Positions 5,290-62,384 of a DNA stretch of 64,000 nt are shown piece after piece. Location of the stretch: contig JAHRHZ010000061.1 in NCBI GenBank assembly GCA_024137785.1, forward strand, positions 2,010,066 through 2,074,065, given 5' to 3'. A program made the position numbers and the translations under genes. Within the stretch, counting starts at the first letter, position 1, and the number at the start of each line of letters is the position of its first letter. This stretch comes from Ginglymostoma cirratum. Its lineage: Eukaryota. The notes beneath the pieces are model-generated. The model saw only the letters and a list, made by a program, of their open reading frames with translations. It did not search any database and had not been told where the DNA came from.

Positions 5290-5700
5290 GCCCATGAACC
5301 CATTCTAGAAGTGTTATTTTTTGGATAAGACTTTAAACTGAGGCTCTGTCTACTGGATGCAAAAAATACCATGGCAACATCTGAGATTTCTCCAATGTCC
5401 TGGCCAATATTCATCTTGCAATCCTCATCACTGAAATCTGATTACCTGGTCATTATCTCACTGCTGTTCACAAAATCTTGCTGGGTGTGAATTAACTGTT
5501 GCACCTCCTACAATACAACACCATTTTCTGACGAAGGGTCTAGGCCCGAAACGTCAGCCTTCTTGCTCTTCTGATGCTGCTTGGCCTGCTGTGTTCATCC
5601 AGCTCTACACCTTGTTCTCCCATTTCTTTAAATGTTTTTACTAAGTGTTTTGGGAAGTTGTGAACTTGGGAAAGGTAACATATAAATGCAAATTTTTCCT
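5290..5700 (+). mobile_element. Deu-domain SINE (SacSINE1/AmnSINE-like), interrupted by a hammerhead cassette
   Basis: Core tgtcctggccaatatt...gattacctggtcattatctcactgctgtt...tacaatacaaca resembles the Deu SINE core. Confidence 0.55.
5527..5619 (+). mobile_element. Solo Penelope-terminus cassette with minimal type I hammerhead ribozyme (core 5528-5555)
   Basis: CTGACGA-A-GGGTCTAGGCCC-GAAA-CG-TC, flanked by a ccattt direct repeat (5521-5526 / 5620-5625). Confidence 0.7.
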
Positions 5701-6162
5701 TTGTTGTTTTGTTACTTAATGGCAAACATGGAACTGTATAAAGCTTTTTAGGGGGTGGAGTTCTAAGTTGTCTCTGAGAAAGTGCATGAATTTACATGAA
5801 CTGATTTTCATCACCAGTGTGCGGTTCAGAACTAGTCATAATTGCACTAGAATTGTTATTTTAATAGCACACAAAATTTATATTATTGTTAGAAGCTCCA
5901 GGTAGAGAGCTGAGCATTTGCGGGAAGCACATTAATGCCGGGAGCATAAAATCAGATTACAAACATAATTTGTATTATTTCGAGAAATATATTGCAATTG
6001 TGTACAGTGGTCTACCACCTCTGTCAGAAATTTTTAAAGCACTCCCTATACAGTAAATTGCATTGTGCAGTTGTTATTTTATGGTGAAATGTGGCTGCCA
6101 TTTTGCATGCAGCAAGTTTCAATAAACAACAGAGATAAATGGCCAGTTAATTCTGTCATGAT

Positions 6163-6381
6163 TGTAACAAGATCAGCCAGCTGGACCTCATAGAATAAGA
6201 GTTCCCTGATTGGGGCTGTTAATCTGGTTCAATTGGGGGCCCTGGTTGACAAATAAATAGGGGAATGTCAGAGATACTGACACTCTGGGAACTGATCCTG
6301 AAGAGGCAGTACTAAAGTCACGGACTGTTCAAATAAGGACCAGCTTGGTGATGGGAAACCGGCCTGTGTGGAGTTCTTTCA
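6163..6381 (+). mobile_element. Possible solo LTR
   Basis: Starts TGTAAC, ends TTTCA, with an internal aataaa and TATA-like sequence. No target-site duplication is visible. Confidence 0.4.
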
Positions 6382-6639
6382 AATTTGATTATTTCAATGA
6401 TTGAAAGGTGAATACTGACTAGAATATCATCACATATGAGTGGATTCAAAAAAGAATTGAATTATTATCGTGTTGCTGAGAAATTGTCAGCTAACTGAAA
6501 GAAAAATACAATGCAATAAATAGTTTAAGATACTCAGAGCTTTTTTTAAGTGAATTTTCCAACCTTTGACTTTAGAATTCAGTTTGAGAAGGAGGGCCTT
6601 GTGTCAAAAACAACTGTACAGAAAGACATAATATGATCA

Positions 6640-7940
6640 AGCAGAAATACAAAGGACGTTTGAGCAGAGCCCGTGTGGCTTCATGATGGAAAAATCATGG
6701 CTAAAAATCCTTTTAGAATTCTTTGAGGAAGAAACAAGCAGGATAGTTAAAGGGCACAAAGTGGATGTGATGTTTAGATTTTTAGAGGTATTTGATAAGC
6801 TCCCATACATTAAGCTACTTCAGAAGACAAGAGTCCATAATGTTGGAGATAGTACACTAACATTGATGGGGTAATGGCTGGCTGATAGAAGGCAGCAGAT
6901 TGGAGTGAGGGGAGGAGTGCATTTTCAAGATGGCAATCTGTCGTTAGTGGAGTGTCACAGGGATCTATGCTGGGTTCACAATTATTTACAATATATATCA
7001 ATGACCTGAATGGGGACAGTGAATTTGCAATAGCCAGGTTTGCAGATGACACAAAAACGAGTGTGAAGGCAATTGCAGATTGACACTGAGTCTACAGAGG
7101 GATATACACAGGTTAAGCAAACTTAACAGACTTAAGTTAACAGCTGGAATGTGGGAAAATATGAGGTTATGCATTTTGGCAGGAGGAATAGAGCAGCCTA
7201 ATATTATTTGAGTGGAAAAAAGACTTCAGAAAGCTACAGTGTAGGAATTTGAGAGTCCTTGTGCATAAATCTCAAAAAGCTAGCATCCAGGTACAACAGG
7301 TAATAGGGAAGGGAAATAGAATTTTAGCCTATGTTTCAAAGTGAATTGCGTATAAAAATAGAGAAGTCTTGCCAAAGCTATATAAAGTACAAGTTGTACC
7401 ATAACTAGAAGACTGTAAAAAGTTTAGTCCCCTTTTCCAAGGAAAGACACTAAACGCGTCCAGAGGAAGTTCACTGGGCTGATCCCATGTAAGGAGGGAC
7501 TCTCTAATGAGGAGATGTTAAGTAGTTTGGGCCTATACTCATTGAATTTTTGAAGAATGAGAGGAGACCTTATTGAAACATACAAAATTCTTAGGGGACT
7601 TGACAGGATAGATGTGGAAAGGTTGTTTCCCCTTGTGGGACTGTCTGGACGAGAAGACATTATCTTAGAATAAGGGGTTGACCCTTTAAGATGGAGATGA
7701 TGAGGAATTTCTTCTCTCAGAGGGTAGCGAATTTATGGAATTCTTTCCAATATTCGGCTGTCGAGACTGGGTTGATAGATATATTCAATGCTGAGATAGT
7801 CAGATTTTTAATCAGTAAAGGAATTAAGGGTTATGGGGCAAAGGCAGGAAAGTGGAGCTGAGGGTCAGCTATGATCTCATTGAATGGTGGATAAGACTCA
7901 ATGGGCTGAATAGCCTACACTGCTTCTTCTGCTTATGGTT
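6640..7940 (+). mobile_element. CR1 LINE 3' portion (RT remnant plus 3' UTR), decayed
   Basis: SGVSQGSMLG and FADDTK motifs near 6945-7056, the ETYKIL region, and a CR1 tail gggctgaatagcct. Contains stops and frameshifts. Confidence 0.85.
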
Positions 7941-8088
7941 TTACATTGTAGGGTACCCACTAGATTTAATATAAAGTTATGCAGTATTCTATAGGTTATA
8001 CTGGTGGGATTTTTCATAGTCACTGATCTCCTACAACTAGAGTCGAAAGTGGGAAGCCACTTGGTTCAGCAGGCAGTGGCAGCTTTTT

Positions 8089-8415
8089 TTAGAATTAGAA
8101 TCCCTACAGTGTGGAAACAGGTCCTTCGGCCCAACAAGTCCACACCAAACCTCAGAACATCCCACCCAGACCCACCCCCCCAACAACCCACCTAAACACT
8201 ATGGGCAATTTACTATGGCCAATCCACCTAACCTGCACATCTTTGGACTGTGGGAGGAAACCAGAGCACCCGGAGGAAACCTAAGCAGACACTAAGCAGA
8301 CAATGTTTGCACATTCTTGCAAACTCCACACAGACAGACGCCTGAGGCTGCAATCGAGCCCGGGTCCCTGGTGCTGTGAGGCAGCAGTGCTAACCACTGA
8401 GCCACCGTGCCGCCC
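8089..8415 (-). mobile_element. HE1-type tRNA-derived SINE (elasmobranch)
   Basis: Minus strand starts gggcggcacggtggctcagtggttagcactgctgcctcacagc (box A) and ends in a CR1-like tail (ttccacactgtagggattctaattctaa). Confidence 0.85.
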
Positions 8416-8689
8416 AAGGACACATATTCCTAATGAGGGCAAATGAAGTGGCTGCTGTCCCTATTGAGAATGAACCCCTCAAAGGCATACTGGATCAATC
8501 AAAATGCCAGCACTCAACAACTCCACCAGAGCTACTGATCATGGTGGCCATTCCCAGGGCTGCAGCTTTAACCCAGTGGCCTTAGGTCAAGTAGTGTTCA
8601 GAGGAGCACTGTTCTCCTGAACATACTAGGCTTGAATATTTTGAGCATTTTCTGTGATTTCCACAATATGGAGAGTATGTGCTTTCTCA

Positions 8690-9045
8690 CTTAGAGAGGT
8701 ACAGCATGGAAACAGACCCTTCAGTCCAACTCTTCCATGCCGACCATATATCCTAAGTTAATCCAGTCCCAACTGCCGGCATTTCGCCCATATTCCTCTA
8801 AACCCTTTCAATTCATATACCCATCCAGACGCCTTTTAAATGTTACAATTGTACCAGCCTCCCCCAGTTCTTCTGGCAACTCAGTCCATACATACACCAC
8901 CCTCTGTGTGAAAAGTTGCCCCTAAAGTCTGTTTTAAATCTCTCACCTTAAACCTATGTCCTCTAGTTTTGGACTCCCCTACCCTAGGACAAAGAATTTG
9001 ACTATTCGCTGTATCTGTGTCTTTCATGATTTTATAAACATCTAA
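8690..9045 (-). mobile_element. CR1 LINE 3' end
   Basis: Reverse complement of the CR1 tail (gaagggtctgtttccatgctgta) and the ORF2 C-terminus. Confidence 0.75.
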
Positions 9046-9198
9046 TCAGCAACATCACTGGAGTGCAATGATCTTCATCAAAATGAACTGAAGCTGGATT
9101 TGATGGGTTAACTTGGGATGTGTGACAAGGGTGGTGGGTTTTTTTTTAAATGTTGCATTTTCCAGTAAATTAATGATTATGTATTTTATTGCTCCAAG

Positions 9199-9564
9199 GA
9201 AAAAGCCAAAGCCTAATCGTTTCCGTGACACCGTCTGAGATCAAAGCATTAAGAGGACAGACGGTGAATATAAACTGTTCATACCAAAATGAAAATGGAG
9301 AACAGCTGAGGATAAAATGGGGGAAAAAAGACAGTGCACAAGAGCTTTGTGATTACACTTACAATAAAAATTATATCAAGTATACAATATGGCATTGTAT
9401 AGAACATATGGATATCACAGTGGATCTCTCAACAAACTCATCATCTTTAACAATCTACGATCTTCACTTAAATGATTCCAGCATTTACTTTTGTCAGATT
9501 TCTATTGAAATACCGCCCCCTACATTAACAGTTAAAGGTAAAGGCATACTCCTCACGGTGGAAG
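9199..9564 (+). CDS. IgSF receptor, V-set (VJ-type) domain exon, CD28H/TMIGD2-like
   Basis: Acceptor ctccaag| and donor G|gtaagt, phases 1/1, 366 nt. Has B-strand Cys (NINC), LRIKW Trp, DSSIYFC, an extra Cys pair (ELC...WHC), IEIPPP FG loop and a J-like GKGILLTV G strand. Confidence 0.92.
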
Positions 9565-10021
9565 GTAAGTTCATCATGATACTGAGTTACAATGTAAGCT
9601 GGCATCAAAACTGAAGTGAAATGGCGATTACCCTTCAATAATGTATTAAAGTGGCTGTAAATACTTTTCAATCTGCTGAGTTCCTGAGAGATGCTATATA
9701 AGTGTAATTTCTTTCTTTATTTGCTGATCAATAGCACTAAGCTTGGGTTTTTAAACCATGCTGGTTGGCTGGAGAAGGAAAGACTAGTGGGAGGTATTCA
9801 GTTCCTGGCAGTGGTACAAATGAGATTCAAAAAAACAAAGATAAATAGCTGATAGAGAAAGAGACTTTGAAGATTAGAAGGTGAAAAGGAAAGGTTCTTT
9901 TTATTCCTTCTCAAATGTGTAAGAAATGCTGGAAGGGCTTCTTAGGTTATAAGGGCAGGTATCCAGGTTTGGAATAAACTTGTATTTCACAGGGTGATAA
10001 ACATGAGGGGAAAATTGATCT

Positions 10022-10235
10022 TGAACAAAAACAAAGCTGGAAAAGCTCAGCAGGTCTGGCAGCATCTGTGAAGGAAAAAGCAGAGTTAATATTTCTGAGG
10101 AAGGGTCACCGGACCCGAAACATTAACTATTTTTTTCCTTCACAGATAGTGTCAGACCTGCTGAGCTTTTCCAGCAACTTCTGGTTTTTTTTCCTTGATT
10201 CACAGCAAACACAGTTCTTTTGGTTTTTATTAAGA
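10022..10235. mobile_element. Palindromic Penelope-terminus element with hammerhead core (10095-10124)
   Basis: Inverted arms gctggaaaagctcagcaggtctggcagcatctgtgaagg / ccttcacagatagtgtcagacctgctgagcttttccagc. 11-bp TSD aaaattgatct (10011-10021 / 10236-10246). Confidence 0.75.
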
Positions 10236-10345
10236 AAAATTGATCTGGTGTGTTAGTTTAAAATAAGTCATGTCAAATTGGTAGATTGTTTTCCACGCCA
10301 ACCACTTATTTAGTGACAGCAGTTGTAGTTTAGAGTGCACAACAT

Positions 10346-10465
10346 GGGCGGCACTGTGGCACTGTGGTTAGCACTGCTGCCTCACAGTGCCAGGGATCTA
10401 GGTGGGATGCTCTTCAGAGGGTCGATGGGCTGAATTGCCTCTCTCTGGACTGTCGGGATTCTATG
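10346..10465 (+). mobile_element. Internally deleted HE1-type SINE
   Basis: Head gggcggcactgtggcactgtggttagcactgctgcctcacag fused to the tail gggattctatga. Confidence 0.7.
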
Positions 10466-10959
10466 AACGTGTGTTCTGTCCAGTAGTCTCACTGACAATA
10501 GGAAAAAGATTTTAACTTACATAGTGCCTCTCATAACCTCAGGATGATCTGCAGAACTTTAAGGTCAACAAAATATTGAATGACCAGATGAGGGATAGAA
10601 TTGGCATTCATTTTGGTGTTGTTGGAAAGACTGGAAGTGAGGTCCTTATGACCAGTGCAGGCTGCTACCACACTTCAAAGGAGATTTTAGTCCGTATCAC
10701 CAATAGATGAAGGAAGGAATTTATGTACAGCCTTAGCATGTCACAAAGTACTTCACTACCATTATATTTCTAAAAGTAAAACTGCGTACAGAGGCCGACA
10801 GAGCAGACAAGTTCCACACAGTAAGATCCCATAAAAACAGATAAGATAAATGACAAGGTAATCGTTTTTGACACTTAATTGATTGAGAGGTGTCGGCTAG
10901 CTTAGGTAGTCAATGAATTTACTGCTCTTTTCTGCATAAAACAGTGGGATCTTTATATT

Positions 10960-11085
10960 GAGATAGCAAGAACTGTAGATGCTGGAGTCTGAGATAACAC
11001 AGCATCAAGCTAGAGGAACACAGCAGGCCAGGCAGCATTAGAGGAACAGGAAAGTTGACGTTTTGTGTCGGGACCTTTTTCAGAA
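10960..11085 (-). repeat. Penelope-terminus cassette, degenerate hammerhead
   Basis: Same family as 19445-19573, with the core decayed (CTGAAAA...AAAACGTC). Confidence 0.6.
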
Positions 11086-11269
11086 GATCTTCACGCTAAT
11101 TGAAGCAGATAGACAGGACTTTGGCTGCGCCTATGACAATGCAACACAGCATTGACATATCAGTATAAGATTATGGGCTGAATTTCCCCATTTTGAGTTA
11201 ATGTGTTTTGTTGAGTGAGCTTCATGGAACCCAGTCTGCGATTGTTCAAAGCGATCTTTCTGCTCTTCA

Positions 11270-12004
11270 TAAAGCTGAAGTTCAAAGGGATCTGGGAGTG
11301 CTAGTACAGGATTCTCTAAAGGTTAACTTGCAGGTTGAGTCCATGATTAAGAAAGCTAATGGAATGTTGTCATTTATCTTGAGGGTTGGAATATAAAAGC
11401 AGTGATGTGCTTCTGAGACTTTATAAAGCTCTAGTTAGGCCCCATTTAGAATACTGTGTCCAATTTTGGGCCCCACACCTCAGGAAGGACATACTGGCAC
11501 TGGAGCGTATCCAGCGGAGATTCACACGGATGATCCCTGGAATGGTAGGCCTAACATACGATGAATGGCTGAGGATCCTGGGATTGTATTCATTAGAGTT
11601 TAGAAGGTTGAGGGGAGATCTAATAGAAACTTACAAGATAATGCATGGCTTAGAAAGGGTGGACGCTGGGAAGTTGTTTCCGTTAGGTGGGGATACTAGG
11701 ACCCGTGGGCACAGCCTTAGAATTAGAGGAGGTCAATTTAGAACGGAAATGAGGAGACATTTCTTCAGCCAGAGAGTGGTGGGCCTGTGGAATTCATTGC
11801 CACGGAGCGCAGTGGAGGCAGGGACGTTAAATGTCTTCAAGGCAGAGATTGATAAATTCTTGATCTCGCAAGGAATCAAGGGCTACGGGGAGAGTGCGGG
11901 TAAGTGGAGTTGAAATGCCCATCAGCCATGATTAAATGGCGGACTGGACTAGATGGGCCAAATGGCCTTACTTCCACTCCTATGTCTTATGGTCTTATGG
12001 TCTT
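11270..12004 (+). mobile_element. Young 5'-truncated CR1 LINE
   Basis: Open ORF2 C-terminus 11386-11913 (LYKALVRPHLEYCVQFWAP...RRHFFSQRVV) followed by terminal TCTTATGG repeats. Confidence 0.92.
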
Positions 12005-15500: not shown

Positions 15501-17043
15501 GTACTAAAAAATTGAGCTAAGCTCAGATTCATGAGCAAATTTGTATGTCCCTATTCACAAAGCAACCTGGAAGAAGCAAGCAAGTTATGGGTGTCTCTGA
15601 GCTCTAAAGACAAGTGTTGAAGGTCTGAAATATGAGTGTGATGGCCTGAGAGTAGATATGATGTTGTGTTGAGACTGATGGTTTACCACTGCCAATCTGT
15701 ATAGATGAAGAATGGAGAAAGATGATGGCCAGGACAAGTAAACAGTGAGCTGCAGCTGCCAAGTACCTACTCTGATTTACAAGTCAGGAATTGGTACTGT
15801 CCAGTTTCTCAGAGAAGGACATGAGGTTTGGAAATTGCACATAAATGAAGCAAGTTGGTGATTTAATGAGGTGCAAATGCATGGAGGGAAGGTAGTCAAT
15901 ATTCACAAGCAAGGTTCTGAGATCTGCTTCAAGCTTAAGGGGAGATTTGGGAATTTTTTTCCCAATGTCAAGATTCCGATTTTTTCATTCTCGCCATATT
16001 TTGCCAACTTTCTCGCCATTGCCCACAATGCAGTAAGGAGTGGAATATTCCACTCTATATAGCAGAGTCCTAGAGTGAGATTGGTTTACACAACATTTTG
16101 ATTCAAAATGAATGATAGAACTAAAGATGGAAGCGTCATGGGTAAGAAACTAATTATTTGTTGACTTACAACATTCAAAAATTCCATTCACTTATAAAAC
16201 AAATTCAGTTTTATGTAATTTCATACAATTTTTGAAGTTACTATTTTTTAGTGTGTTTTAATAACAGAAGCAGATTCTGAACAATTTATTCTATTCCAAA
16301 ATCTTGAATAGCGAGTAGTATGGTTTAATACATTTAAGAATTAATGTACTTTTCATTTATGAAACACTAGGTTTAATTAACAACACAAGAATCTTTAGCC
16401 CATCTATTTAACTGTGTGGAGAGAAAACAAAGCAGCATTTGTATATATTGAGTTTGTGTGGTCTGCTGTGGCTTCAGTCGTTATTCTGTTCTTGATCTGC
16501 ATTTTGTGAGAAATAATGCTGTTCCTTTCAAATGAATTAAAACCAGCCGTAGTCTAAATAAACCACCATGTGCTAATACATTAAGCTGTTAATATTAGCT
16601 GCATCCTCATTAAATGAAATAAAGATAAACTGAAACTTTGACTTGGTTTCATTGTTACTCCAATTAAGTGGTAACAGTGTCATCAACTGAATCGTGCCCC
16701 TGACTCCGAATAAAAAATATAATCCTTACATCAGTTTCAAAGCATCTCAGGAATCCGCTTTGGTTACTTAATAGAGGAGCAGTCAGATCTGGTATTTCAG
16801 AATGGGCCATGACAACGTGGTAGGTTTCGATGAATGCCTGGGGATTTAGTGCATCCTTTTACACTTTGTTTTGTTTGTCTAAGTCAGCTTTATAGCACAG
16901 GTCACACGGTAAACATTATGTAATACTCGTCAAGCTGTTTCCAAATCTCACAAAGTAATAATTGACGAAGCAGTAAAAATAAATGACCAGGCAGAGTCAT
17001 TACTGGATATTAAAGATCTAATAATATTACAATTGATTTTCAG

Positions 17044-17349
17044 CTCAGCCAACCGTCCAGTTAATTGAAAAGACTCAGCCTTACCCTAATGAAGGGAGAG
17101 AGTTAATCTGCACATCACTGGAGTTCTACCCTGATGACATTCAAGTGTCCTGGTTTAAAGATGGACAACGGATCACCAATGGCATTAAGAATGGGACTCT
17201 CTATACTAACAATGACGGCTCATTCTCCATCACAAGTGCCCTGAATCTTTCTGTGCTTGAGTGGAACGAAGGTGAAATGTATTCCTGTCAGGTGAACCAC
17301 TCAACACTGCCTGCACCAATCACTGAAAGGATTTGTGTTAGTTATCCTG
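17044..17349 (+). CDS. IgSF receptor, C1-set constant domain exon
   Basis: Acceptor gattttcag| and donor G|gtaaga, phases 1/1, 306 nt. Motifs LICTSLEFYPDDIQVSW, NNDGSFS and YSCQVNH are C1-set signatures. There is an extra Cys in ERICVSYP. Confidence 0.92.
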
Positions 17350-19444
17350 GTAAGAATACTTGTGTGTTCGATCATATAGTTAGTAATAAACATAACACCT
17401 TACTGGATGGTTTCATGCTTCAACTACTGGTTAGTATTTACTTGTCAGCATTCTTGGCATCACTCTACATTGCAAACCAGCTGTCCAGCCAATTGAGCTG
17501 ACCAGGGGAACAAAGGGTTTTGTGATTCGGTGGTAGTGCCCATTCCTCTGGGCCAGTAAGTCCAGGTTCAAGTCTCACCTGTTGTCCTGAAGGTGTGTCA
17601 AACACTTTGAGATATCTCTTTTTATAGAGTACAAGGTATGGAATCTAGTGTGGAAGGAGCTGTAAGACTGAGTAGTTAATAAACTGTTAATAAGCTGGTT
17701 TCTGTCACACTGACGGGCTTGAATTAAAATCATCATTGGTCGAAGATGATTGCCTAAAGAAGGAAGATAATCAGTAGAGTCACTCCAGAGAAGAATAGCT
17801 GAAACTTTGTGCATATGACTTTCCAAAGACATTTGTGAAGCTGAACTTTATGATGTATGAAAAATGAAGTTGACATACAGACATGAATTACATCTTTGCT
17901 AAGAAAAAGACCATACATGACCTTGGCATGTTACTTCCCACTTAAAAAAATTAGACGTAAAGTGTTCTCAATATTAAAGGTTCAATAGTTGGACATTGAG
18001 GAAGGTTTGGAAATTCTATTAAAATTTATGAACAAAATGGATAAGAAGGATGACATATTAAATGCACATGAGCCATGGCCAGCCTTCGATAAATTTAGAA
18101 AACAGGATGGATATTCTGTGGAAGGATACAGATTTGAATTTATCAAACTATATACAATATTTCAAAAAATTCCATTTGGCGATGCCTAATTCAATGCTTG
18201 CCTTAAATTTTTGGAAACAAACAAAAACAGAAATTGCTGGAGAAACTCAGCAGATCTGGCAGCATCTGTAGAGAAAAAGCAGTGTGAACATTTCAAGTCC
18301 TGTAACCCTTCTTCAGGACTATTGAACTAAATGGTTGGACTGTGCTAAGGTGCCAAGTGAGGATAGAGATAGAGTTTGAGAAAGACACAAACGTTTGGAC
18401 TAGGTGTCAGAAGCCTTAAAATATTACTGGGCAAATATTCTCTGCCTTCGTAGCTCAAGTGGGACCTTCAGCATTAACACAAATAATAGAGGATTCAATG
18501 GTGGTAGCAAAGCCAGATCACCCAGATATATGTCTGAAGCATCAACACAAAAGAGAGTCAAGCTAACCAGACAGAGGATAGGAATGCCTCTTGCAATCAC
18601 AATGCAGTTGGCAGGAACTGGGGGTGATCCTCAGGAATGGCTGGAGTATGGTTAACAGGTGTATTAAATAAGACTTGAAATACAATTAAACAATAAATGA
18701 TCCTGAATGGAATGACAAGGTTTACGAAAGTATGTATTACACGACATGTTTAGAGGGGTTGACGATATAGGGAACTGGACTAGTTACAAGGGTTAAAATT
18801 GTAGCTTGACCTGCTGTGTTCATCCAGCCCCATGCTTGTTATCTTGGACTAGTTACAAGAAGCTTTAGCCCAATAATGAATATTTTAGTTGCAGAATCAT
18901 TCAGTTGTGCTGTGTTTGGCAGTGAATGCATGCCCATTGTGTATTTGGTAGATTGGTTAGAATGTTACATAGATTACTTAAATAATAATGACTAAATAAA
19001 CTAAAGTTAAATTACAGGATTTGACGATTCTACTTGCTTTAGTTTTGAGCATGACTGTGTGCTGGAACTATTAAAGAGAGTGGTACTTCCCTGTGAAATA
19101 GCTGGGATAAACCACTTTGTCAGCACAAATGAATTGCAAAGTGAAACACCCTTCTGTTCAGCAGGCCATCTATGAAAAAGACTACATAAAACTGCACATT
19201 GAACAAGACAAGGTAATTGATTCTGGAAATATCAACGGATTTACAGTTTTCACAATCCTATCATTAGTACATGCCTTTAACAAGCCCCAACTCTAATCAA
19301 AATATTATGATATAATGAAAATATATTCCAGGTGTTATTGGGCATCAGGGGATAGGATTTTAAACAATAAAAGATTAATTACCTGAAAACTACAATTGCA
19401 GTTTGCTCATCCATCTCCTCAAATTGTAATAACAATCCAAGAAT

Positions 19445-19573
19445 CTGATGAAGGGTTTAGGCCCGAAACGTCAAGTTTTCCTGCTCCTATGATGCTGCTT
19501 GACCTGCTGTGTTCATCCAGCCCCATGCTTGTTATCTCGGATTCTCCAGCATCTGCAGTACCTTTTATCTCTG
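19445..19573 (+). mobile_element. Solo Penelope-terminus cassette with intact hammerhead core (19445-19472)
   Basis: CTGATGA-A-GGGTTTAGGCCC-GAAA-CG-TC. TSD atccaagaat / atacaagaat (19435-19444 / 19574-19583). Confidence 0.75.
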
Positions 19574-21777
19574 ATACAAGAATAAGGGAAGTTGAGTACA
19601 CTAAACCTACACAAGAGATCAGCAATAGGTGTGATTTGTGTAAAGAAACAGAGGAGCTTGCCACCCATAAGGGTGTTTCCTGTTAGCAAGAAGCTTTAAA
19701 GATATTGTGACAATCTTGAATGTATAGGATGAGTGAAAAACATTTTCAAACTGCACTTTGTGGATACGGCAATTAGATTTAGTCAGTCCGTATTAACATA
19801 CGGTAAATTGAAAAGAATAATTGTGGGTGAGGTAATGGAGAAAAGGATAGGGACTGCATTAGGGGGTCACTGGCAAAGTTGTAATTGATAATGCAGGAAG
19901 GGATGGCATTTGCCAGGAATGAACTTAGGAATGTGTATGAGAACTTTTAAAAAAAGACCACCAAGGCATCTCAAGCTGTTTTACTTTATTGGCTTTGAGC
20001 AGTCTGCTCGGTGCCTCTGTCACAACCTTTCTTCACAAAAGAAACAGGACAATGAACACCTCTTAGAGCCTTAGTATCGTCACACACCAAACAGTGTGCA
20101 TTCTCATATGTTGGACAATTATGAAATCATAATATGGCAGATGAAGGGCTGACTGAATAGGGATAAAGTGATATGTAGATGTACAACAAGGGTATTTGCT
20201 CGAAGAAAGTTCTGAAACTTGGCACAAAAATAACATTAATGCCATGGCATTATAGGGCCATCTTTATAGGGAAAGCACGGAAAGCCACTGGAAAATACAA
20301 ACTTTGGCTAAAGTGCAAGATGAGGGACAGAAGACAATGTCCATTGATTGACAAAATGAGATACAGATGTGAAAGTCCAGAAAATGCAGCCCTGAAAATA
20401 GATCTGAAGTGAACACGGCCCAAGGAAAAGATTGTGAAATTGCAAAAGGGATTCTCATCACTGGACAGGAAATCTTTTAGCAGCAGTGTGTAGCCAGATA
20501 GGAGGATGAGGAGACAATATGGTTTGACAAGAGCAGGGACTATAGAAGAGGTTGGGAATAACACAAGACACATAAACCTTAAGATCACGCAGTTTTAGTG
20601 ACGGCAAAGAAATTTGAGGGTAAGTTAATAAAAAGAAACAAAAAAGGTTGAAGAGCTGGAGAGAACTTGTTGTATATCCTGCAGTACTAGATTGGGAACA
20701 GTTTAAAGATTCTGAGGAGGCTTGACAGTTATGATGTTTTGGAAATGAAGGCTATAATGAAATGTGCACCTGTTGTTCAGATGTTGAGAGTAAATGAACA
20801 TTAAAGAAAGCAAATTTAGAAAAATACACACTCAAGTTTCCAGCCTTGGGTGATCCAGCAAATATGAAGCTGATGCCTTTTAGAAATGCTTCACATGTCA
20901 ATCTTGCAGATGGCTATTTCTGTATGGCAAGGCTATCATATCCCTAGTGGGAAAGATGAATATTTTTTATTATTCATTCAGTGGACAGGCCAATATTTAT
21001 TGTCCATGCCTAGTTGCCCCAGCTGCCTTCTGGAACTCTGCAGCCTATTTGGTGTAGATACACCTATAGTGCTGTTAGGGGTAGACTCCCAGGATTTAGA
21101 CCCAGGCACGATGAGAGTATTTCATCTTCTGACTTGTAACTTTTAGATTGTTGACAGATTTTGGGGAGTCAGGAAGTGAATTACTCACTGCAGGATTCCT
21201 AACCTCCAACTTGCTTTTGTAGCCACAGTATATATCAGTGGTAAGCCCCAGAATATTGATTGTGGGGATTCAGTGATGGTAACAGCATTGAATGTCAAAG
21301 GGTGAAGGTTAGGTTCTCTTGTTGGAGTTGGTCATTGCCTGCTACCCGCGTGGTGCTAACTTTGTCTACTGGCTTGGGAAGCCAAGAAAATAAAAAGAGT
21401 AGTTGAAGGTATCTTGGTAACTGAAAACTGGCCATTGTTTGATATATAGATACGGGACGTATTTAGCCAATATTCTGAAGGATATCCTATTCAGGAGGCA
21501 GCCTGAGTAAAGTTTGCCCATAGAATATTTTGTGGATTCTCTTTGGGACTGTCAAGACTATTTTCATTCGTTCATGGGGTGTGGGTTGTTGACATGACCT
21601 TGCCAACTTAAAGGCAATATTACAAAGAAAATAAATTTACAAAATAAATATTTTAACACAAGTTACCAATTGTCAAACAGACTATTTCACTAAAGATTGT
21701 GTTTACCTTAAGTAATTATTGGACATCTTCAAAGAGAGGTGCCTGTTAGTATGTGGAATTATTAACAAACTGAAAGT

Positions 21778-22675
21778 CTCCATGACTCCCTCGTCCACTC
21801 CGCACTCCCCACTAGCCCCACCACATCCGGCACTTTTCCCTGCAACTGCAGGAACTGCTACACCTGCCCCTACACCTCCCCCCTCACACCCATCTCAGGC
21901 CCCAAGAAAACCTTCCACATCAAACAGATGTTCACCTGCAAGTCTGCTAATGTGGTATACTGTATCTGCTGTTCCCGATGTGGCCTCGTCTACATCGGGG
22001 AAACCAAGCGGAGGCTGGGAGACTGCTTTGTGGAACACCTACCCTCGCTTCGCAACAAGCGACTGCACCTCCCAGTCGCAAACCATTTCAACTCCCCCTC
22101 CCGCTCCTTGGACGACATGTCCATCCTGGGTCTCCTGCAGTGCCACAACGATGCCACCTGAATGTTGCAGGAACAGCACCTCATATTTCGCTTGGGAACC
22201 CTGCAGCCCAATGGTCACAATGTGTGGACTTCACAAGCTTCAAAATCTCCCCATCTCCGACCTCATCCCAAAACCAGCCCAGCTCGTCCCCGCCTCCTTA
22301 ACCTGTCCATCCTTCCTCCCACCTATCCACTCCTTCCACCTCAAGCTGCACCCCCACCTCCTACCTACCAGCCTTATCCCCGCCTCCTTGACCTGTCCAT
22401 CCTTCCTGGACTGATCTATCCCCACCCTAACTCCCCACCTACACTCACCTTTACTGGCTCCATCCCCGCCTCCTTGATCTGTCCGTCTTCTCTCCACCTA
22501 TCTGCTCCTTTATCCACCTTCCATCATCACCTCCCCCCTCCCTCTCTATTTATTCCAGAGTCCCCTTCCCCTCCCCAATTTCTGAAGAAGGGTCCAGACG
22601 CGAAACATCAGCCTTCCTGCTTCTCTGATGCTGCCTGGCCTGCTGTGTTCATCCATCTCCACACCGTGTTATCTC
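21778..22675 (+). mobile_element. 5'-truncated Penelope-like element (GIY-YIG endonuclease, pyrimidine-rich tail, terminal hammerhead module)
   Basis: NVVYCICCSRCGLVYIGETKRRL...EH GIY-YIG motif, premature TGA at 22159, and CTGAAGA...GAAA at about 22582-22605. Confidence 0.88.
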
Positions 22676-45744: not shown

Positions 45745-45957
45745 AAAAAGAAATCCGTGTATGCTGGAAATCAGAGAAACAAACAGAAATTGCTCGAAAG
45801 CTCAGCAGGTCTGTGCAGAGAAATCAGAGTTAATGTTTCGGGTCCAGGGACCGTTCTTCATAAGGGTTCCTCTCGGGGTCCCTGGACCCGAAACATTAAC
45901 TCTGATTTCTCTGCACAGACCGGCTAAGCTTTCCAGCAATTCCTGTTTTTGTCTCTG
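45745..45957. mobile_element. Palindromic Penelope-terminus element
   Basis: Near-perfect arms gtctgtgcagagaaatcagagttaatgtttcgggtccagggacc / ggtccctggacccgaaacattaactctgatttctctgcacagac. Confidence 0.75.
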
Positions 45958-46399
45958 AGGCTTATGAAGTCCACTTACTGATGTTATTTATGTAGAATTC
46001 TGCAGTTTGGGTTCAACTTAAGTATTTTACTTCTGACCTTTTTGTGAGACTTACTCAGCAATTTTTTTTTTAACTTAAACAGGTTCTATTTAAATATTTT
46101 GAGAAATAAGTGCATCTATCTGGCTTATGAACAGGTTTAAAAACTCACCATCTAGGAGCAAAGAACTGCTCAGGTTAATGTGTAAGCATACGTAGTGCAG
46201 AGGGCATGATGCAGAACTGGTAATCCAGAAATCTGAATCTAATAATCTGTGGACTAGCAAGGGACCAAATGACTGTCAGATTGTTGGAAATATCCAATAC
46301 CTCATGACGATCCTTCAGGATGGGAACCTGCCATCACTATTCAATGGCATCCCGGAGTCATATTTCTTGCGTTATTGGCAAGTAACACAGATTAAAGAA

Positions 46400-53988: not shown

Positions 53989-54031
53989 CTAGAAAGATGA
54001 CAAGAAAGTTCTTAAGTACATTATTTCCACA

Positions 54032-54203: not shown

Positions 54204-54399
54204 TACATTATTTCCACAGTCTTGATCATCCACAGGTTTTCAAGACTTTTTCTACAGTTCCAAATAAACAAGATAAACTCTTTTTGTGAAGGGAACAGTC
54301 AGCACAGAGCGATTGTAGAAAACACTGCATGGGAAATAGTGTGCAAAAGTTGGAAATTTGGTGCAAATAGGAAGTCAGGGCAGGGGGAAAGGAGGTGTT

Positions 54400-56070
54400 T
54401 GCTACTTTTTGCCTCTGATGTAGTAGTTTGTGTAAGTTTGCAGTAGTTAGTATTTAAAAAAACTTAAGTATTTATATAAATAATAAATATATAAATAATC
54501 TGGATTAAGGTATGGCAGAACGGGCTGTGGGCCTGGATATTATGTGGGAATTTGTGGGCACAGAGGTCAGCCTTGGACACATCTATAGTAGGTATTTCCA
54601 TTTGGTTCTCTGGGGCTCAGAGTAATGGAGTTGGAGTATAGAGTGGAGAACTTGACTCAGGAGCAGTACCTGGACAGTTTGCTTTGAACACTGTTGGCCT
54701 ACCCAAACCAAACAGATTACAGCAGTTCAAGGTAGCAGCTCACTAACCAGGGATGGATAATAATTGCCCATAATGTCGATGAATACCAGGAACGAATTAA
54801 AAAAGACTTTGGTCAACTCTGTGGAGACATGTGGATTCATAAGGGTTTTGGAATGGCTGATAGTGTACAATGTAAGAGAATAAGATAACTCAGTTAGAAA
54901 AACAATGCATTTATAACAAGTATAATCGCTACCTGTGAGATAAGCATAAAGATTTTCAGAAGGATAGCCAGAATGCAGACATGGCAGGTCGGAACAGGAG
55001 ACTATCCATAAAAGGCAAGGAAAACAACAAGTGCAATAGATATTTGTCAAGGGTTCATTATTATAGAGAAAGTGTGTTCAAGAGCCTGTGCCAGGGTGAG
55101 TAATCTATAAAACTACTTGAAATGATAATGGCAGGGAGGGGACGGATCCAATCATTGTAATCCATACTGGGATCAACTCAGATAGAAGAGTAAGCACGAG
55201 ATCCTGTTTAGACAGTACCAGGAACTAGGGGAGCTAAATTAAAGATCTGGGTTATAATATGGATCATTTCCAGTGTCATGTGCAAATTGGCGCAAACAAA
55301 TTAGAGAGGTGACCATGTGGCTAGGAAAACACAATTCCATATGGGACACCGATGCCAGAAATAAGACATAAAGGAACTATTCTATTAGATTAGGCTCCAG
55401 CTAAGAGAGGCTGGTACCAGTATCCTGCCATAGAGGTTAAATAGAGTGATGAAAGAACTTTGAACTAGTGAATGGATGGATTGGGAGGCAAGAAGATTGC
55501 AAATAAAGAAAGTAGTAGCAATAATGGTTCAAAAATGTGACAGGGAATAGAAACTGTGCTCTAGGCAATAAATGTAAAGGGAAAAGTACAAGATATAATT
55601 AAACTAGGAAACAGAAATAAGAAACATATGCTTAAAGGTAAGAATTTAAGAACAGATGGAGGGTGTGTAATCCAAATAGGTGTCCTTCACAAAAAACATG
55701 GAGAAATAAGAAACAGGCTGAATGAAATACAGTTGCAAATTCAACTTGGAGTGTATGACATGGTAGCCATTTTTAAGACATGGCTATAAAGATGGTCAGG
55801 ACTGGAAACTAAACATACCAGGGTGCATGGTCAGTAGAAAAGTAAGGTGCATTCTAGAAGGGAAGCAGCAGTGATTAAGGGCTTCTACAATGAGAGGTTA
55901 TGAGAGATATTCAGGCAATTGAAACTTTATGGGCGGAGATAATCAAAAAGGTTTTAAGAATGTTGAAGGAGTTGCATATAAGTCCCTCCTGGTCACTGTT
56001 GTGAAGTGGTAGATTACATAAATGCAGGTATTAACCAAACATGTATCAATTACAGAGTGATCTTAATAGT
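54400..56070 (+). mobile_element. Old CR1 LINE 5'/internal region (ORF1 and endonuclease), heavily decayed
   Basis: Endonuclease-like remnants (tatgacatggtagccatt...acatggct; ctaaacataccagggt; gaaactttatggg) similar to 59905-60386. Confidence 0.5.
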
Positions 56071-57085
56071 TACCGGTTCAGAGGCATGCCATACTAGATT
56101 CAGTATGGAATTATAAACCAGATTTCGTTAATAACGCATGAACACTTAGGTAACAATAATCATAATATTGAGGAAGAAACACCAAACAGATCGATTTAAC
56201 AACACAAACAGCCATCAATGACTAAAAAGATGGATGACAACAAAGAACCAAAAGAAAAACAATACAAAAATGCAAAAAAACAAGAGAACAAATGTGAAAC
56301 AACAAAGGGTAAGAAAGCAGATAGAAAAGGACTACAAACTCGGATTGTGAAAATAAACTTGTGAGGATTATCAAAAGTCAACACAGTTTTACAATTATAT
56401 TGAGAAAAGTCAACTTCCATCAGAACTGTCTTTATAAAATCTCATGTTACTGTTATAGTTTACCATTGCCAGTGGATATGTATTAAAACGGATAGTGCTA
56501 ATACACAAAATAGAAGAAAGTTAGAAATACAGTAGTTTTTGTCAGAAGTGAGAAACTTTAAAACCACAGGCAGAATTTTTTCCTCACTAAATAAATGCTC
56601 AATATTGCGCAGTTGGAAGTCACACCACACCAGGTTATGAAACATACGGTTTATTTGAAATCACAAGCTTTCATAGCACTGCTCCTTCATCAGGTTACTC
56701 AGTTATGGAAGGAAAAAACAGCTTGCGCAACACTTTTCAAAATGATCTTGATGGCAAGATGATCTTTTAAAAAAAAACCCTTTAACAGCTGACATTTTAT
56801 TCATTTGCAAAAAAAATGCACTGTATGAGGCTGTCAGTCACAGTTATAAGCATGTATCACAAAGAGATTCATGGCGTCAAAGACATATTCTTATTTCCAA
56901 GGTCCATTGAAAATCAGATATCAGTGATAACTCTATTTTATAATGTTACAACTTGCAAGTCAGACACAAAAGACTGCTTGCCACACAAATCCATCAGCTA
57001 AACATGAGTGAATGGGAGACAGGCTGCTAGGTTAAATCTCTAACATGAGTGGAGAAAAAAGCAGAGAAAGAAATTGACTACTCAC

Positions 57086-57224
57086 CCAAGAGCAGATTCA
57101 TCTTTCTGTTTCAACTTCTTCAACTTCTTGGTTCCACTAGTCCCAATATTCGAAAATGACCAATCTTCCTCCTTCCAACATCCCTCATGGTCAGATGAAC
57201 CCCCTTTTCCTGAAGCTTTCTTAC
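57086..57224 (-). CDS. BBX: BBX coding exon (most 5' BBX exon found in the window)
   Basis: cttttag|GT...GG|gtgagt, phases 1/2, 139 nt. KKASGKGGSSDHEGCWKEEDWSFS...SGTKKLKK. HMG-box exons were not seen and presumably lie beyond the window. Confidence 0.9.
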
Positions 57225-58224
57225 CTAAAAGAAATGCAAACCCATTCTTATGTCATTCAGTAAACACACCAGGGAGTGCATCTATATTGCACCATAGCAA
57301 ACCATCAGACTCCTTCAAAACCCGATACTTATTCCCAACATTGATCTGGCTTATGTCCTTTCAATATCACCTCTCCAAGGTTTTCTTTGTAAACAATAGC
57401 TTCGATAGAGATGAAAATAATATTATTAAAATAGAGGTTTAAACTGTCATTATTCCAATTTATTTGAGAATTCATTAGCAAACCTTTTAAGCCATACAAT
57501 AAAGAGATAATGTTAGCTACATCTTCTGCCTTGCACTTTTGAACTGCACAGACTCATCAGCTATGGTCTGAGATCTGCAGTTCTCCATTCAGGAAGACTA
57601 ATCAGCGCTGCAACAATTGGCCATGTTATACACAATAACTGTCTGCCAGCTGCCAGATCAGCAAAATACCAGGAACTTGTAGACAAAATGCTCCTATTAG
57701 ATGAATCTTGCCTCTTTCGTTCGGCTACAGAGGTGAGCATTAAAGTCAGTATATCTTTGCCTTCAATGACTTCTTTGGTAGCCTCTGGGTCACTGATTTC
57801 AGCAAATTGACAGTTAAAATTTATGCAGGGCACTCCGTATGTTTGAAAGCTCTCATCTGCTGATAAAAGGGGCAGGATCAACAGTGTCAGTTCCACAAAC
57901 GTCAGATTGCAGCAAGTATTACTGGAGATAAAAGTTTAGATTTTAGATCCTACCTCTGCAATGTGGGGACAAATGTTACCTGGGAAATATCTTGGGTGGC
58001 TCTTGTGATCCTTAAAAATTTACTTATTCATGGGATGCGAGTATATGATAGGACAAGGCTACTATCAACTTCTTCAACTTCCTGGTTCCACCTTGTACTT
58101 GAGATGGTCTTAGTGAGCCACCTTCATAAACTGTTGCAGTTTGTATGGTAAAGGTACTCCCACGGTACTATTAGAAAAGGAGTTCCAGGATTTTGACCCA
58201 ATGAGTAACAAAATATTCACAAAT

Positions 58225-58595
58225 GACCTTATAGAGGTTTACAAAGTCACAAGGGGCACAGATAGGGTGACTAGCCAAGCCTTTTACCCAGGGTAAGGGA
58301 GTACAAAACCAGAGGGCAGAAGTTTAAGCTGAAAGGGGAAAGATTTAAAAGGGACCTAAGGGGCAACTTTTTCACACAGAGGGTGATGTGTGTATGGAAT
58401 GAGCTGACAGAGGAAGTGGGGGAGGCTGGTACAATTATACCATTTAAAAGTCATCTGGAGGGGTATATGAATAGGAAGGATTTAGAGGTATATGGGTCAA
58501 ATGCTGGCAAATGGGACTAGATTTATATAGGATATCTGGTTAGCATGGATGAATTGGATCAAATGGTCTGTTTCCATGCTGTATATTTCTATGAT
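58225..58595 (+). mobile_element. CR1 LINE 3' end
   Basis: gaccttatagaggtttacaaa...tttttcacacagagggtg...ggtctgtttccatgctgtat. Confidence 0.8.
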
Positions 58596-59339
58596 TGTAA
58601 GTTAGTTTGGTGTACGGCTTCGAAGAAAATTTAAAGGTGCTGATATTTGCATGTGCTGCTGATCTTGCCGTTCCAGTTGATAGAGGTTTTGGAGTTGAAA
58701 CAAAACCAAAACCTGCTGAAGAAACTCAGCAGGTCTGGCAGCATCTGTGGGAAGAAAGCAGAGTTAACGTTTTGAGTCCAATGACTCTTCATCAAAGGAT
58801 TCGGATTTGGTAGGTGCTGTCAAAAGAGCCTTGTTGAGTTGCTGGAATGCATCTTACAGATGGTACACACTGAAACCATGACGTGCGTATGGAGGAGGGA
58901 GCACATTTTTACATGATAGATGGGATGCCAATCACGCAGGTTGCTTTGTCCTCCATGTTACTGAACTTCTTATATATTGTTGGAGCTGCACTCTAAATGT
59001 TGAAGCGTCAAGCAATTTGTGATTTGTCACATAGCTGCCAATATGAGGGATGCACAGACTGGCTGAGTAAATAGAGACAAATTGTGCCTGTGATAGCTTT
59101 TGCTCATGGGTGAGGAATAACTGACTAATAAACAAAGTACAGCAAGTTAGGAAATCTTGGTTCTTTGCCACCTGGGGTCACATTCATCTTCTTAAATCAT
59201 TGAAATTTCACTATAGCATTTTACGTCTTTAAGCAACAGTATTATTTTGTATTTCTATGGCACCCTTTACTACGTTAAAGGAACTAAAGTCAATCAGACG
59301 ACTATAATAAAAAATAAATACATAGTCATCAACAAAGAG

Positions 59340-59890
59340 ATATAAAGAGGTAAGAAGGTAAGAATGTAAAAAATAAGAACAGAGTTGGCCCTTTGAGGTT
59401 GCTTTGCTGTTCAACATGGTTGATCTGCTATGTCAACTTCCCTGCACCACATCATTTCCACATCTCTTGACTCCTTAAGTATAGAAAAACATATCAATAT
59501 ATAGCCTAAATAAATCATCCAAATAAAATTCTCCTCATCTCTGTCCTAAGTGGCCAATGTATTCTCAGACTGTAGTCTCTGTTTTTTGACTTGCCAGCCA
59601 AGGAACATATCCTCCCAGCATGAAGTACGTTAAGAATTTTCTATGTTTCAATGAAGATGAACTTCTCAGTCTAATTAATATGATTTAGCAGGACAATCCT
59701 CTCATCCCAGAAATCATTCAGGTGAAGCCTTGTTGCACTGCCTCAGAGGCAGGTATATCTTAGTTAAGATGACCAAAGGTGAACATAATACTACAGCTGC
59801 AGTCTCATCAAAGTCCTACACAATTAAATATAGACTTTATGTATCTTTATATTCCACTCCCTTCGTAATAAAGGCTAAAATGTATTTTCT
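59340..59890 (-). mobile_element. CR1 LINE 3' end, decayed
   Basis: Reverse-complement ORF2 C-terminal motifs (aagaattttctatgtttcaatgaag). Confidence 0.6.
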
Positions 59891-60386
59891 CAATTGCTTG
59901 CATGCCTGATATGATGTAATTGGGATCATGGAGACCTGGCTCCAGGGTATCCAAGGATGGGAACTCAACATCCGGGGTTATTCAATTTTCAGGAAAGATG
60001 GATGGAAAAGGAAAGGGAGGTGGGGTACCACTGCTCATTACAGGAGGAGATTAACACAATTTTAAGAGAGGACATTAGTCTGGATAACGTGGAATCAGCA
60101 TGGGTAGAGCTGCTGGACACCAAAGAGAAAAAGATGTTAGTGGGAGTTATGCGCAGACCACCAAACAGTAGTTGTGAGGTTGGGGATTGTATCAAACAGT
60201 AAATAAGAGATATATATGCTGTAAGGGGATAGCAGTTATTATGGATGACTTCAATCTACATATTGATTGGACCATCTAAACTGGTAGCAATGTGATGGAG
60301 AAAGATTTCATGGAATGTAAGAGGGATGGTTTCCTTGACCAATATGTTGAGGAACCAACCAGATAGCAAGCCATCCTAGACTCAGT

Positions 60387-62384
60387 GATAACAAGGTGTA
60401 GAGCTGGATGAACACAACAGGCCAAGCAGCATCAGAGGAGCAGGAAAGCTGACATTTTGGGTCTGGACCCTTCTTCAGAAATGGGGGAGGGGAAGGGGGT
60501 TCTGAAATAAATAGAGAGAGGGGGGAAGGCGGATGGAAGATGGATAAAGGAGCAGATAGGTGGGAGAAAAGATGGACAGGTCAGGGAGGTGGGGATGGAA
60601 CCAGTAAAGGTGAGTGTAGATGGGGAGTAGGATGGGCGTTGGTCAGGTCAAGGGAAGATGGACAGGTCAAGGAGGCGGGGATGAAGCTGGTAGGTAGGAG
60701 GAGGGGGTGGGGGTTCAGGTGGGAGGAGTGGATAGGTGGGAGAAAGGATGGACAGGTTAGGGAGGCGGGGACGAGCTGGGCTGGTTTTGGGATGCAGTCG
60801 GGGGAGGGGAGTTTTTTAAGCTTGTGAAGTCCACATTGATACCATTGGGCTGCAGGGTTCCCAAGTGAAATATGAGGTGCTGTTCCTGCAACCTTCGGGT
60901 GGCATCATTGTGGCACTGCAGGAGGCCCAGGATGGACATCCAAGGAGTGGGGAGGGGGAGTCGAAGTCGAAGTGGTTTGCGACTGGGAGATGCAGTCATT
61001 TGTCACGAACCAAGGGTAGGTGTTCCACAAAGCGATCTCCAAGCCTCCGCTTGGGTTCCCTGATGTAGAGGCGGCCACATCGGGAACAGCGGATACAGTA
61101 TACCACATTAGCAGATGTGCAGGTGAACATCTGTTTAATGTGGAAGGTTTTCTTGGGGCCTGGGATGGAGGTGAGGGGGGAGGTGTAGGGGCAGGTGTAG
61201 CACTTCCTGTGGTTGCAGGGAAAAGTGCCGGGGGTGGTGGGGCTAGTGGGGAGTGTGGAAAGGACAAGGCAGTCACGGACAGAGTGGTCCCTCCGGAAAG
61301 CAGATAAGGGTGGGGAGGGAAAATTGTCCTTGGTAGTGGGGTCAGATTGCAGGTGGCAGAAGTGGCAGAGGATGATGCTTTGAATCAGGAGGTTGGTGGG
61401 GTGGTACGTGAGGATGAGGGGGATTCTGTTTTTGTTATTGCAGGGAGTGGGTGTGAGGGATGAATTGCGGAAAACACGAGAGATGTGGTCAAGGGCGATT
61501 TCGACAACTGTGGAGGGGAAGTTGCAGTCCTTGAAAAATGAGGACATCTGGGATGTCCTGGAGTGGAAAGCCTCATCTCGGGAGCAGATGCAGCGGAGGC
61601 GAAGGAATTGGGAATAGGGGATGGCATTTTTGCAGGAAGGTGGGTGAGAGGAGGTGTATTCTAGGTAGCTGTGGGAATCGGTAGGCTTGATATAGATATC
61701 GGTTTCCAGGTGGTTGCCAGAGATGGAAACAGATGTCCAGGAAGGAGAGAGAGGTATCAGAGATGGTCCAGGTGAACTAAAGGTTGGGGTGGAAGGTGTT
61801 AGTAAAGTGGATGAACTGTTCTAGCTCCTCGTGGGGCACGATGCGGCACCGATATAACGGAGGAAGAGGTGGGGGATAGGGCCAGTGTAGCTTTGGAAGA
61901 GGGATTGTTCCACGTATCCTACAAAGAGGCAGGCATAGCTTGGGCCCGTGCGGGTACCCATGACCACCCCCTTTGTCTGTAGGAAGTGGGAGGAATTGAA
62001 AGAGAAGTTGCTGAGGGTGAGGACGAGTTCAGCTAAGCGGACCAGGGTGTCAGTGGAGGGGGTGAGAGAGATAAAAAGGTACTGCAGATGCTGGAGAATC
62101 TGAGATAACAAGGCGTGGGGCTGCATGAACACAGCAGGCCAAGCAGCATCATAGGAGCAGGAAAACTTGACGTTTCGGGCCTAGACCCTTCATCAGAAAA
62201 AGTGGAGGGGGACTGGTCGGGCCTCCGGGACAGGGAGAAGCGGACGGCTTTTAGGCCATCTGCATGGGCAATGCAAGTATATAGGGAGTGGACGTCCATG
62301 GTGAAGATGAGGCGTTGGGGACCAGGGAATCGGAAGTTTTGGAAGAGGTGGAGGGTGTGGGTGGTGTCACGGATGTAGGTGGGG
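60387..62384 (-). mobile_element. Penelope-like element (partial RT, GIY-YIG, terminal module) with 14-bp TSD
   Basis: TMDVHSLYTCI, QTKGVVMGTRTGPSYACLF, LFLRYI, NVVYCIRCSRCGRLYI. TSD atcctagactcagt (60373-60386 / 62385-62398). Confidence 0.92.
62063..62200 (-). mobile_element. Solo Penelope-terminus cassette with intact hammerhead core (62169-62196)
   Basis: Minus strand CTGATGA-A-GGGTCTAGGCCC-GAAA-CG-TC. 11-bp TSD agtggaggggg (62052-62062 / 62201-62211). Removing the cassette restores the RT reading DQSPSTDTLV. Confidence 0.8.

Follow-up and report, generated by a model that had tools for sequence, protein, structure and literature searches.

How do repeats of 90-140 bp that carry a hammerhead ribozyme come to be inserted in a genome on their own, and why do they begin just above the ribozyme core? 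The question is raised by a stretch of 64,000 nucleotides from Ginglymostoma cirratum (assembly GCA_024137785.1, contig JAHRHZ010000061.1, positions 2,010,066 to 2,074,065, forward strand), here called the window, in which a reading of the sequence alone had described three such inserts as independently mobilised, retrozyme-like mini-elements using a Penelope reverse transcriptase (RT). The inserts are the hammerhead-plus-tail terminus, or pseudo-long terminal repeat (pLTR), of a Neptune-type Penelope-like retroelement. They are probably explained by reverse transcription that starts at an internal site and runs off an RNA 5' end defined by the element's promoter. In unit coordinates, position 0 is the C that opens CTGANGA, and window positions are those of the whole stretch.

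The parent element

Units were located in the 4.36-Gb genome by pattern searches with exact matches. For the family of the three inserts (family A), a 43-nt core sequence was matched 7,398 times and a 44-nt tail sequence 30,733 times. Two other families, B and C, gave 25,125 and 5,021 matches; each has its own hammerhead, and both also sit downstream of Penelope-like open reading frames (ORFs). The window holds at least four further pieces of family A, two of them joined to a Penelope ORF.

Two longer pieces in the window with a GIY-YIG frame end in a family-A unit. The older, broken and 5'-truncated Penelope-like element at 60387..62400 (-), which is the host of insert 3, comprises RT, linker, GIY-YIG, 3' untranslated region (UTR) and its own hammerhead at 60478. 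A second long family-A copy at 21779..22673 (+) comprises GIY-YIG, 3' UTR, a TATTTA box at 22547 and a hammerhead core at 22582. In the long copy L076 the order is YIDD, a CX4CX2C linker (CNRRKCYTC in translation), GIY-YIG, 3' UTR and unit. Its endonuclease motif reads YIGET, and the Pfam GIY-YIG match (E=0.0016) falls short of the curated cut-off; the Pfam RT domain gave no match on the broken pieces or on the half-length L076 piece. Features of endonuclease-bearing (EN+) Penelope-like elements were found: RT followed by a C-terminal GIY-YIG upstream of the terminus, with a Cys linker between them, and also the optional tail and inverted, 5'-truncated arm. The sequence-only reading was right in regarding the inserts as Penelope termini moved by the Penelope protein; the unit terminates an RT/GIY-YIG element. 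RT, a CX2-5CxxC linker, GIY-YIG and a terminal repeat make up the Neptune/Nematis layout in the sections of PMC8557442 concerned with it, and the label Neptune rather than Nematis is provisional.

At its other side the tail runs on into a reading frame with a methionine near +165, and 1,268 matches to this tail-ORF junction were counted in the genome.

The 5' edge above the core

That the shared 5' boundary is not what random truncation would give had been proposed from three copies, and it held when end positions were tabulated: 5' ends pile up at -7 to -1. Within 1.17 Mb, 209 young copies were collected, of which 55 were dropped because of N or a sequence edge and two as duplicates, leaving 152. 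Of the copies still at risk, 41 of 99 end at -7 to -1. The rate of 5' ends per nucleotide is 0.059 in this interval, compared with 0.007 at 0 to +25 (a rate lowered by the partly core-selected sample) and 0.0017 upstream (not so affected), so that the rate at the edge is 8 to 35 times the neighbouring rate. Among tail-selected copies, 29 of 102 end at -7 to -1, three of these abutting an N run.

The same drop could be followed genome-wide with one anchor and 10-nt probes at +33, 0, -24 and -100, which gave 79,732, 52,862, 28,401 and 21,729 exact matches, somewhat lowered by sequence variants within the probes. The loss is 46% across the 24 nt containing the edge versus 23% across the next 76 nt. 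The 5' ends of short copies lie at -6 to -2 in 68 of 78 cases in family A and at -5 to -2 in 41 of 57 in family B. The ribozyme cut site at +28 does not form a significant second peak (7 of 129 copies end at +27 to +31, p 0.09).

Putative promoter and start of the RNA

Above this edge, the long copies of all three families carry a TATA-like box followed 29-33 nt below by an initiator-like motif. In family A, TATTTA lies at -35 in 60 of the 60 copies having both motifs, with CCATTTC placing its A at -4; family B has TATAAA at -33 in five of six copies and TCAGTTC, again with its A at -4. In family C a TATA-like box at -37 to -40 was counted by eye in four of seven copies, and the A of TCACTTC is near -7. 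The initiator consensus is YYANWYY. In the window, a putative promoter of this kind is found in a long copy at 60479..60513 (-), with TATTTA at -35 and the A of the CCATTTC motif at -4. The pile-up of 5' ends would thus correspond to the transcription start of a TATA-plus-initiator promoter within the pLTR, about 4 nt above the core. A TATA box together with a TCACT initiator-like motif has been noted in a rotifer pLTR, as described in part of PMC3846280.

The junctions themselves point the same way. An extra G is expected where an RT copies the cap. Among solo junctions that keep the A and have a non-template next base, this base is G in 16 of 24 cases, compared with a background of 0.29-0.35, and the extra G may be a record of the cap.

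Thirty tail-ORF junction loci were compared. Four begin at -3/-2, two at +2/+5 and five reach above -8; another 18 either start lower in the unit or gave no alignment, and one abuts N. In six of the 30, the piece with the ORF start is fused to another unit that begins at -5 to -3. On sequence grounds, the unit would be the front of the element's messenger RNA (mRNA), and fusions of this kind are what a jump after run-off would give.

Several observations weigh against placing an RNA start here. The edge is smeared across about 7 nt, and in family C the 5' ends are diffuse (8 of 25 at -9 to -7), so that a shift of the edge with the TATA position rests on few, old copies. Copies adjacent to N were dropped (55 of the 209 young copies; 25 of 175 cores), and these were mostly palindromic; the N runs are of round length (10, 100, 400, 3000, 5000), often stand between inverted arms and look like assembly gaps. 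No full-length element was recovered among the 30 tail-ORF junction loci, where the sequence common to the ORF starts extended no further than about 290 nt. RNA-seq was inspected for one stretch, in one poly(A) run with 41,800 reads and a second with 12 reads; no pile-up of read starts or ends was present among the 41,800 reads, which cover the unit on both strands, and a step in depth at the edge is explainable by genomic stubs within host transcripts. Some of the extra Gs form part of the target duplication. The literature search found no usable paper in support of a cap-derived G, a reading that draws on general background. Finally, the promoter of the Drosophila virilis Penelope is internal and TATA-less, according to the part of PMC2377424 that describes it.

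The hammerhead ribozyme

The motif had been identified as a minimal type I hammerhead, and this is correct: the CUGANGA and GAAA boxes, an NUH cleavage triplet and a palindromic helix III are all present. Rfam called no hammerhead in the window. A loose core motif matched 25 times in the window versus 9.2 expected, and 25 matches were reached in one of 100 shuffles. In the parts of PMC4209133 that treat them, the minimal type I hammerheads of metazoan Penelope-like pLTRs have a palindromic, loopless helix III and a helix I of 2-4 bp.

Between families, stem II varies yet stays paired (pair 4 is U-G, U-A or G-C; pair 3 is G-C or A-U), within the limits set by the family search patterns, which fixed several letters on the 5' side of the stem. 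The conserved boxes served as anchors for scoring the stem pairs, as MAFFT alignments misplaced the family-C stem. Helix I likewise changes in step, from U-A/U-A/U-G in family A to U-A/U-A/G-C in B and C-G/A-U/C-G in C, and the cleavage triplets are GUC, GUU and CUU, respectively. Since both helices change while remaining paired, the fold was under selection in the parent elements. A family-C hammerhead stub, with a GGAGC/GCUCC-type stem and a CUU triplet, represents this third Penelope family in the window at 56659-56693 (-).

In young copies of A and B, helix I is 4 bp long and reaches to -4. With the putative +1 at that point, the ribozyme would occupy the first 32 nt of the RNA in these two families. 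The earlier caveat that helix I is weak in the solo copies was borne out, as inserts 1, 2 and 3 keep 2, 1 and 3 bp. In these copies the minimum free energy (MFE) structure, a non-hammerhead hairpin, is more stable than the hammerhead fold by 7-11 kcal/mol; MFE folding of six units gave z values between -1.8 and +0.05 and did not contain the hammerhead fold. At the ribozyme cut site, no heap of read ends was seen in the poly(A) RNA-seq.

3' ends, paired arms and a proposed mechanism

The 3' ends form two clusters, at +90 to +94 and at +125 to +128. They match what was found in vitro for the anole Poseidon element, whose RT starts at two internal sites and copies uncut RNA (PMC11167929, in the part describing the assay). 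Short head-to-head pairs combine both ends: 32 of 40 pairs have one 3' end near +128 and one near +92, and an arm starting at -8 to -1 occurs in 24 of the 40, although many of these loci had been selected for one tail. Of 85 diagnostic comparisons between paired arms, 10 show a difference, versus 47% for random pairs, which indicates that most pairs derive from one source. At least one differing site is present in 8 of 36 pairs, and a smaller share of the pairs may trace back to two RNAs.

A mechanism can be proposed in which the RT would start internally, 92 or 128 nt beyond the ribozyme core, copy the ribozyme uncut and run off the capped 5' end of the element RNA, about 4 nt above the core. 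The run-off complementary DNA (cDNA) could then be joined directly to the target, leaving a solo stub, to a partner cDNA, leaving a head-to-head pair, or to another RNA piece, leaving a partial tandem. We consider internal start and run-off at a promoter-defined 5' end the probable origin of the inserts; the joining steps are inferred. Stubs formed in this way lack the TATA-like box and are likely dead on arrival.

In LTR retroelements, minus-strand strong-stop DNA is primed near the RNA 5' end, runs off at the cap and jumps. More tentatively, and with less confidence than we place in run-off itself, Neptune transposition as a whole might proceed by a similar step, with priming 92-128 nt from the cap, run-off, and a jump or joining that would account for solo stubs, head-to-head pairs and pseudo-LTRs. 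The palindromic hammerhead in the first 32 nt might in that case pair two RNAs on a protein dimer and so prime both target strands, at +128 and +92.

Some junctions have peculiarities of their own. Above the core of L016 and L056, short reiterated sequences (ATGATTCATC-type and AAACCCTTCATCA-type) lie between inverted arms, and another junction holds a long T run; these suggest slippage, or successive jumps where the template ends, of a kind that a telomerase-like RT might produce. A solo stub near position 3,843,100 of contig C1 of genome G000 (L075) has 5' and 3' flanks that are reverse complements of each other (CAAGGCTTGGG / CCCAAGCCT), which is an inverted, not a direct, target duplication.

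Alternative explanations

The same start site could also be reached by another route. Short transcripts from the promoter in the 3' pLTR of truncated copies might be reverse-transcribed in trans, in a single SINE-like (short interspersed nuclear element) round. About 28,000 exact-match copies retain the promoter region, compared with 1,268 tail-ORF junction matches, and part of PMC3846280 describes how cargo can be mobilised in trans by nothing more than pLTR sequences. The edge is, however, the same in copies with the ORF start, which is found only on the mRNA front or at a tandem junction, and the anole protein needed a template that included the first 172 nt of its ORF (PMC11167929, as far as that account goes). 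We regard this route as unlikely to be the main source, though the two routes can coexist.

An edge set by the DNA or the enzyme, whether by endonuclease cleavage at ATT, annealing of T runs or stalling of the RT at the C-rich tract above the core, is a poor candidate. The anole enzyme does prefer 5'-ATT-3' in its own pLTR, in the experiments covered by that part of PMC11167929; family A has ATTT at -4, and microhomology or T-run slippage is seen at many junctions. Families B and C, with AGTT and ACTT and no C run, nevertheless pile up at a like motif, and the excess of G before the A is not predicted.

The self-propagating retrozyme-like mini-element of the sequence-only reading, borrowing Penelope RT, is very improbable. 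Its discrete size, flanking repeats and tens of thousands of copies would suit such a unit, and animal retrozymes are related to pLTRs in the available part of 10.64898/2026.07.22.740005. Against this, haplotypes at four diagnostic sites do not differ in frequency between 64 long and 57 short young copies (p 0.34-0.94), so that no master lineage of its own, as a SINE-like unit would have, is apparent. No promoter was identified inside the stub, and the short copies, without the upstream TATA-like box, would have none of their own. The head-to-tail arrays of retrozymes are nearly absent: only five same-strand neighbours within 450 nt were counted among 175 family-A cores. Small linear or circular RNA would be expected of a retrozyme; in the poly(A) run, 34 of 41,800 reads carry a joint that goes back 112 nt, for which genomic tandems are also an explanation. 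A retrozyme unit is bounded by the cut, while here the edge is at -7 to -1 and the cut lies 28 nt inside the insert, in a bin showing no enrichment of 5' ends; the short helix I and the hairpin favoured by MFE folding also argue against it. Shared haplotypes, promoter-less short copies and rare tandems together leave an independent retrozyme lineage unsupported.

Full-length insertions might also be reduced to solo units by recombination between their two 130-bp repeats, as in solo LTRs. This would leave both a target duplication and an unchanged 5' edge, and it was proposed for some rotifer solo pLTRs in part of PMC3846280. Full-length precursors are scarce, as the junction matches and the short ORF-start sharing at 30 loci indicate, and many stubs are in head-to-head pairs with unequal 3' ends; this explanation is the least credible of the four.

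The three inserts in the window

Insert 1 (5527..5619 (+)) is a solo pLTR stub of an older family-A subfamily, extending from about -1 to +92 without a tail. Insert 2 (19445..19573 (+)), from 0 to +128 with a tail, and insert 3 (62063..62200 (-)), with a tail and a 5' T run, are solo stubs of the young subfamily. The cores begin at 5528 (+), 19445 (+) and 62196 (-) and span 5528..5555 (+), 19445..19472 (+) and 62169..62196 (-). All three show the described layout of CTGANGA-A-GGGT, 4-nt loop, GCCC-GAAA-CG-TC, and the predicted cuts, after 5555, 19472 and 62169, are where the sequence-only reading had put them. The near-identity of inserts 2 and 3 amounts to 94.6% over 130 nt, with subfamily-diagnostic differences at +12, +57 and +80.

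The direct repeats, given earlier as 6, 10 and 11 bp, are all real, yet only that of insert 3 is clean. Its target-site duplication CCCCCTCCACT (62201..62211 (-), second copy 62052-62062) is exact over 11 bp, and homologous empty sites continue straight through the junction. For insert 1, CCATTT occurs at 5521..5526 (+) and again at 5620-5625, but the left copy is identical to bases -6 to -1 of the element itself, so the repeat is microhomology as much as a target-site duplication. The repeat of insert 2 is exact over 7 bp (CAAGAAT, 19438..19444 (+) and 19577-19583), or 9 of 10 if lengthened, and the right copy opens with bases of the element's own tail (TGATACA), again partly microhomology. 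The proposal that each insert interrupts a different host element stands for insert 3, which lies in the older Penelope RT, and is not established for the others: in 1.22 Mb of sampled genome, insert 2 gave zero matches and insert 1 just two weak ones covering one flank. The flanks of insert 1 (5430-5700 (+)) otherwise resemble what we take to be a decayed Deu-domain SINE.

At 18804-18848 (+), a 45-bp family-A fragment (+53 to +97) without a ribozyme is flanked by two copies of GGACTAGTTACAAG, which indicates that stub insertion also happens without the core.

Other features of the window

Head-to-head pairs of family-B stubs, forming long hairpins, were observed at 10036-10175, 32334-32504, 45771-45958 and 62615-62837. 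The first was matched by Rfam as MIR533 below the gathering score and is likely a false microRNA call; a mir-1490 match also remained below the gathering score. Two exon-sized frames encode an immunoglobulin V-set domain (9177-9614 (+), E 2e-14) and a C1-set domain (17037-17501 (+), E 1e-20), probably parts of one immune-type receptor gene; the IEIPPP stretch of the V domain presumably recalls CD28-family or NKp30-like receptors. The 3' end of a LINE (long interspersed nuclear element) reading frame at 11383-11913 (+) had no Pfam match, and we assume it to be of CR1/L2 type.

Significance and comparison with known systems

The papers leave open how pseudo-LTRs, inverted arms and tails arise in Penelope-like elements, and which role the hammerhead plays. 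To these accounts a promoter comparison over three families, genome-wide counts, a haplotype test and the ORF-start junctions are added here. If the edge is the transcription start, sequence alone would map, for vertebrate Neptune elements, where the promoter lies, where the RNA begins and at which two sites the RT starts; the ribozyme would sit at the cap and be copied uncut, and exact constructs for an existing in vitro assay would follow. These abundant repeats of 90-140 bp should not be annotated as SINEs, miniature inverted-repeat transposable elements, microRNA hairpins or retrozymes.

With the EN+ Neptune and Nematis elements, as far as they are described in parts of PMC8557442 and PMC3846280, the present element shares RT, Cys linker and GIY-YIG, heavy 5' truncation, variable target duplications, a tail of 30-40 bp, solo pLTRs, and head-to-head arms of which one bears the tail (here 32 of 40 pairs). 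For solo pLTRs those accounts suggest recombination or self-priming on an antisense template, and in the parts concerned neither a fixed initiator edge nor a run-off cDNA appears. No published solo pLTR bounded by a start site was found by title or abstract, in a search to which subscription journals, repeat databases and supplements were largely external.

The minimal hammerheads of Penelope-like elements, in the portion of PMC4209133 devoted to them, likewise have an extra nucleotide after A9 and a G10.1-C11.1 pair and mostly occur as single motifs; here, in contrast, helix I almost exactly meets the putative +1 in families A and B. The anole Poseidon element shares two internal RT starts bounding the tail, an uncut template and extension of both target strands. 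It belongs to another clade, its ORF starts inside stem II rather than about 165 nt below the core, and no start-site-bounded product is described in that part of PMC11167929. Non-LTR retrozymes, in the sections of PMC7229834 and 10.64898/2026.07.22.740005 that characterise them, are similarly non-coding, with a type I hammerhead, kinship to pLTRs and dispersed monomers. They are tandem repeats of 150-450 bp with linear and circular RNA running from cut to cut, whereas the units described here are solo or head-to-head and have the cut site inside.

Compared with strong-stop DNA, nicked chromosomal DNA would here serve as primer, with no transfer RNA primer, RNase H or integrase, and the run-off product would stay in the genome. 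The element is one of an ordinary kind, with a 5' edge that is non-random and probably defined by its promoter.

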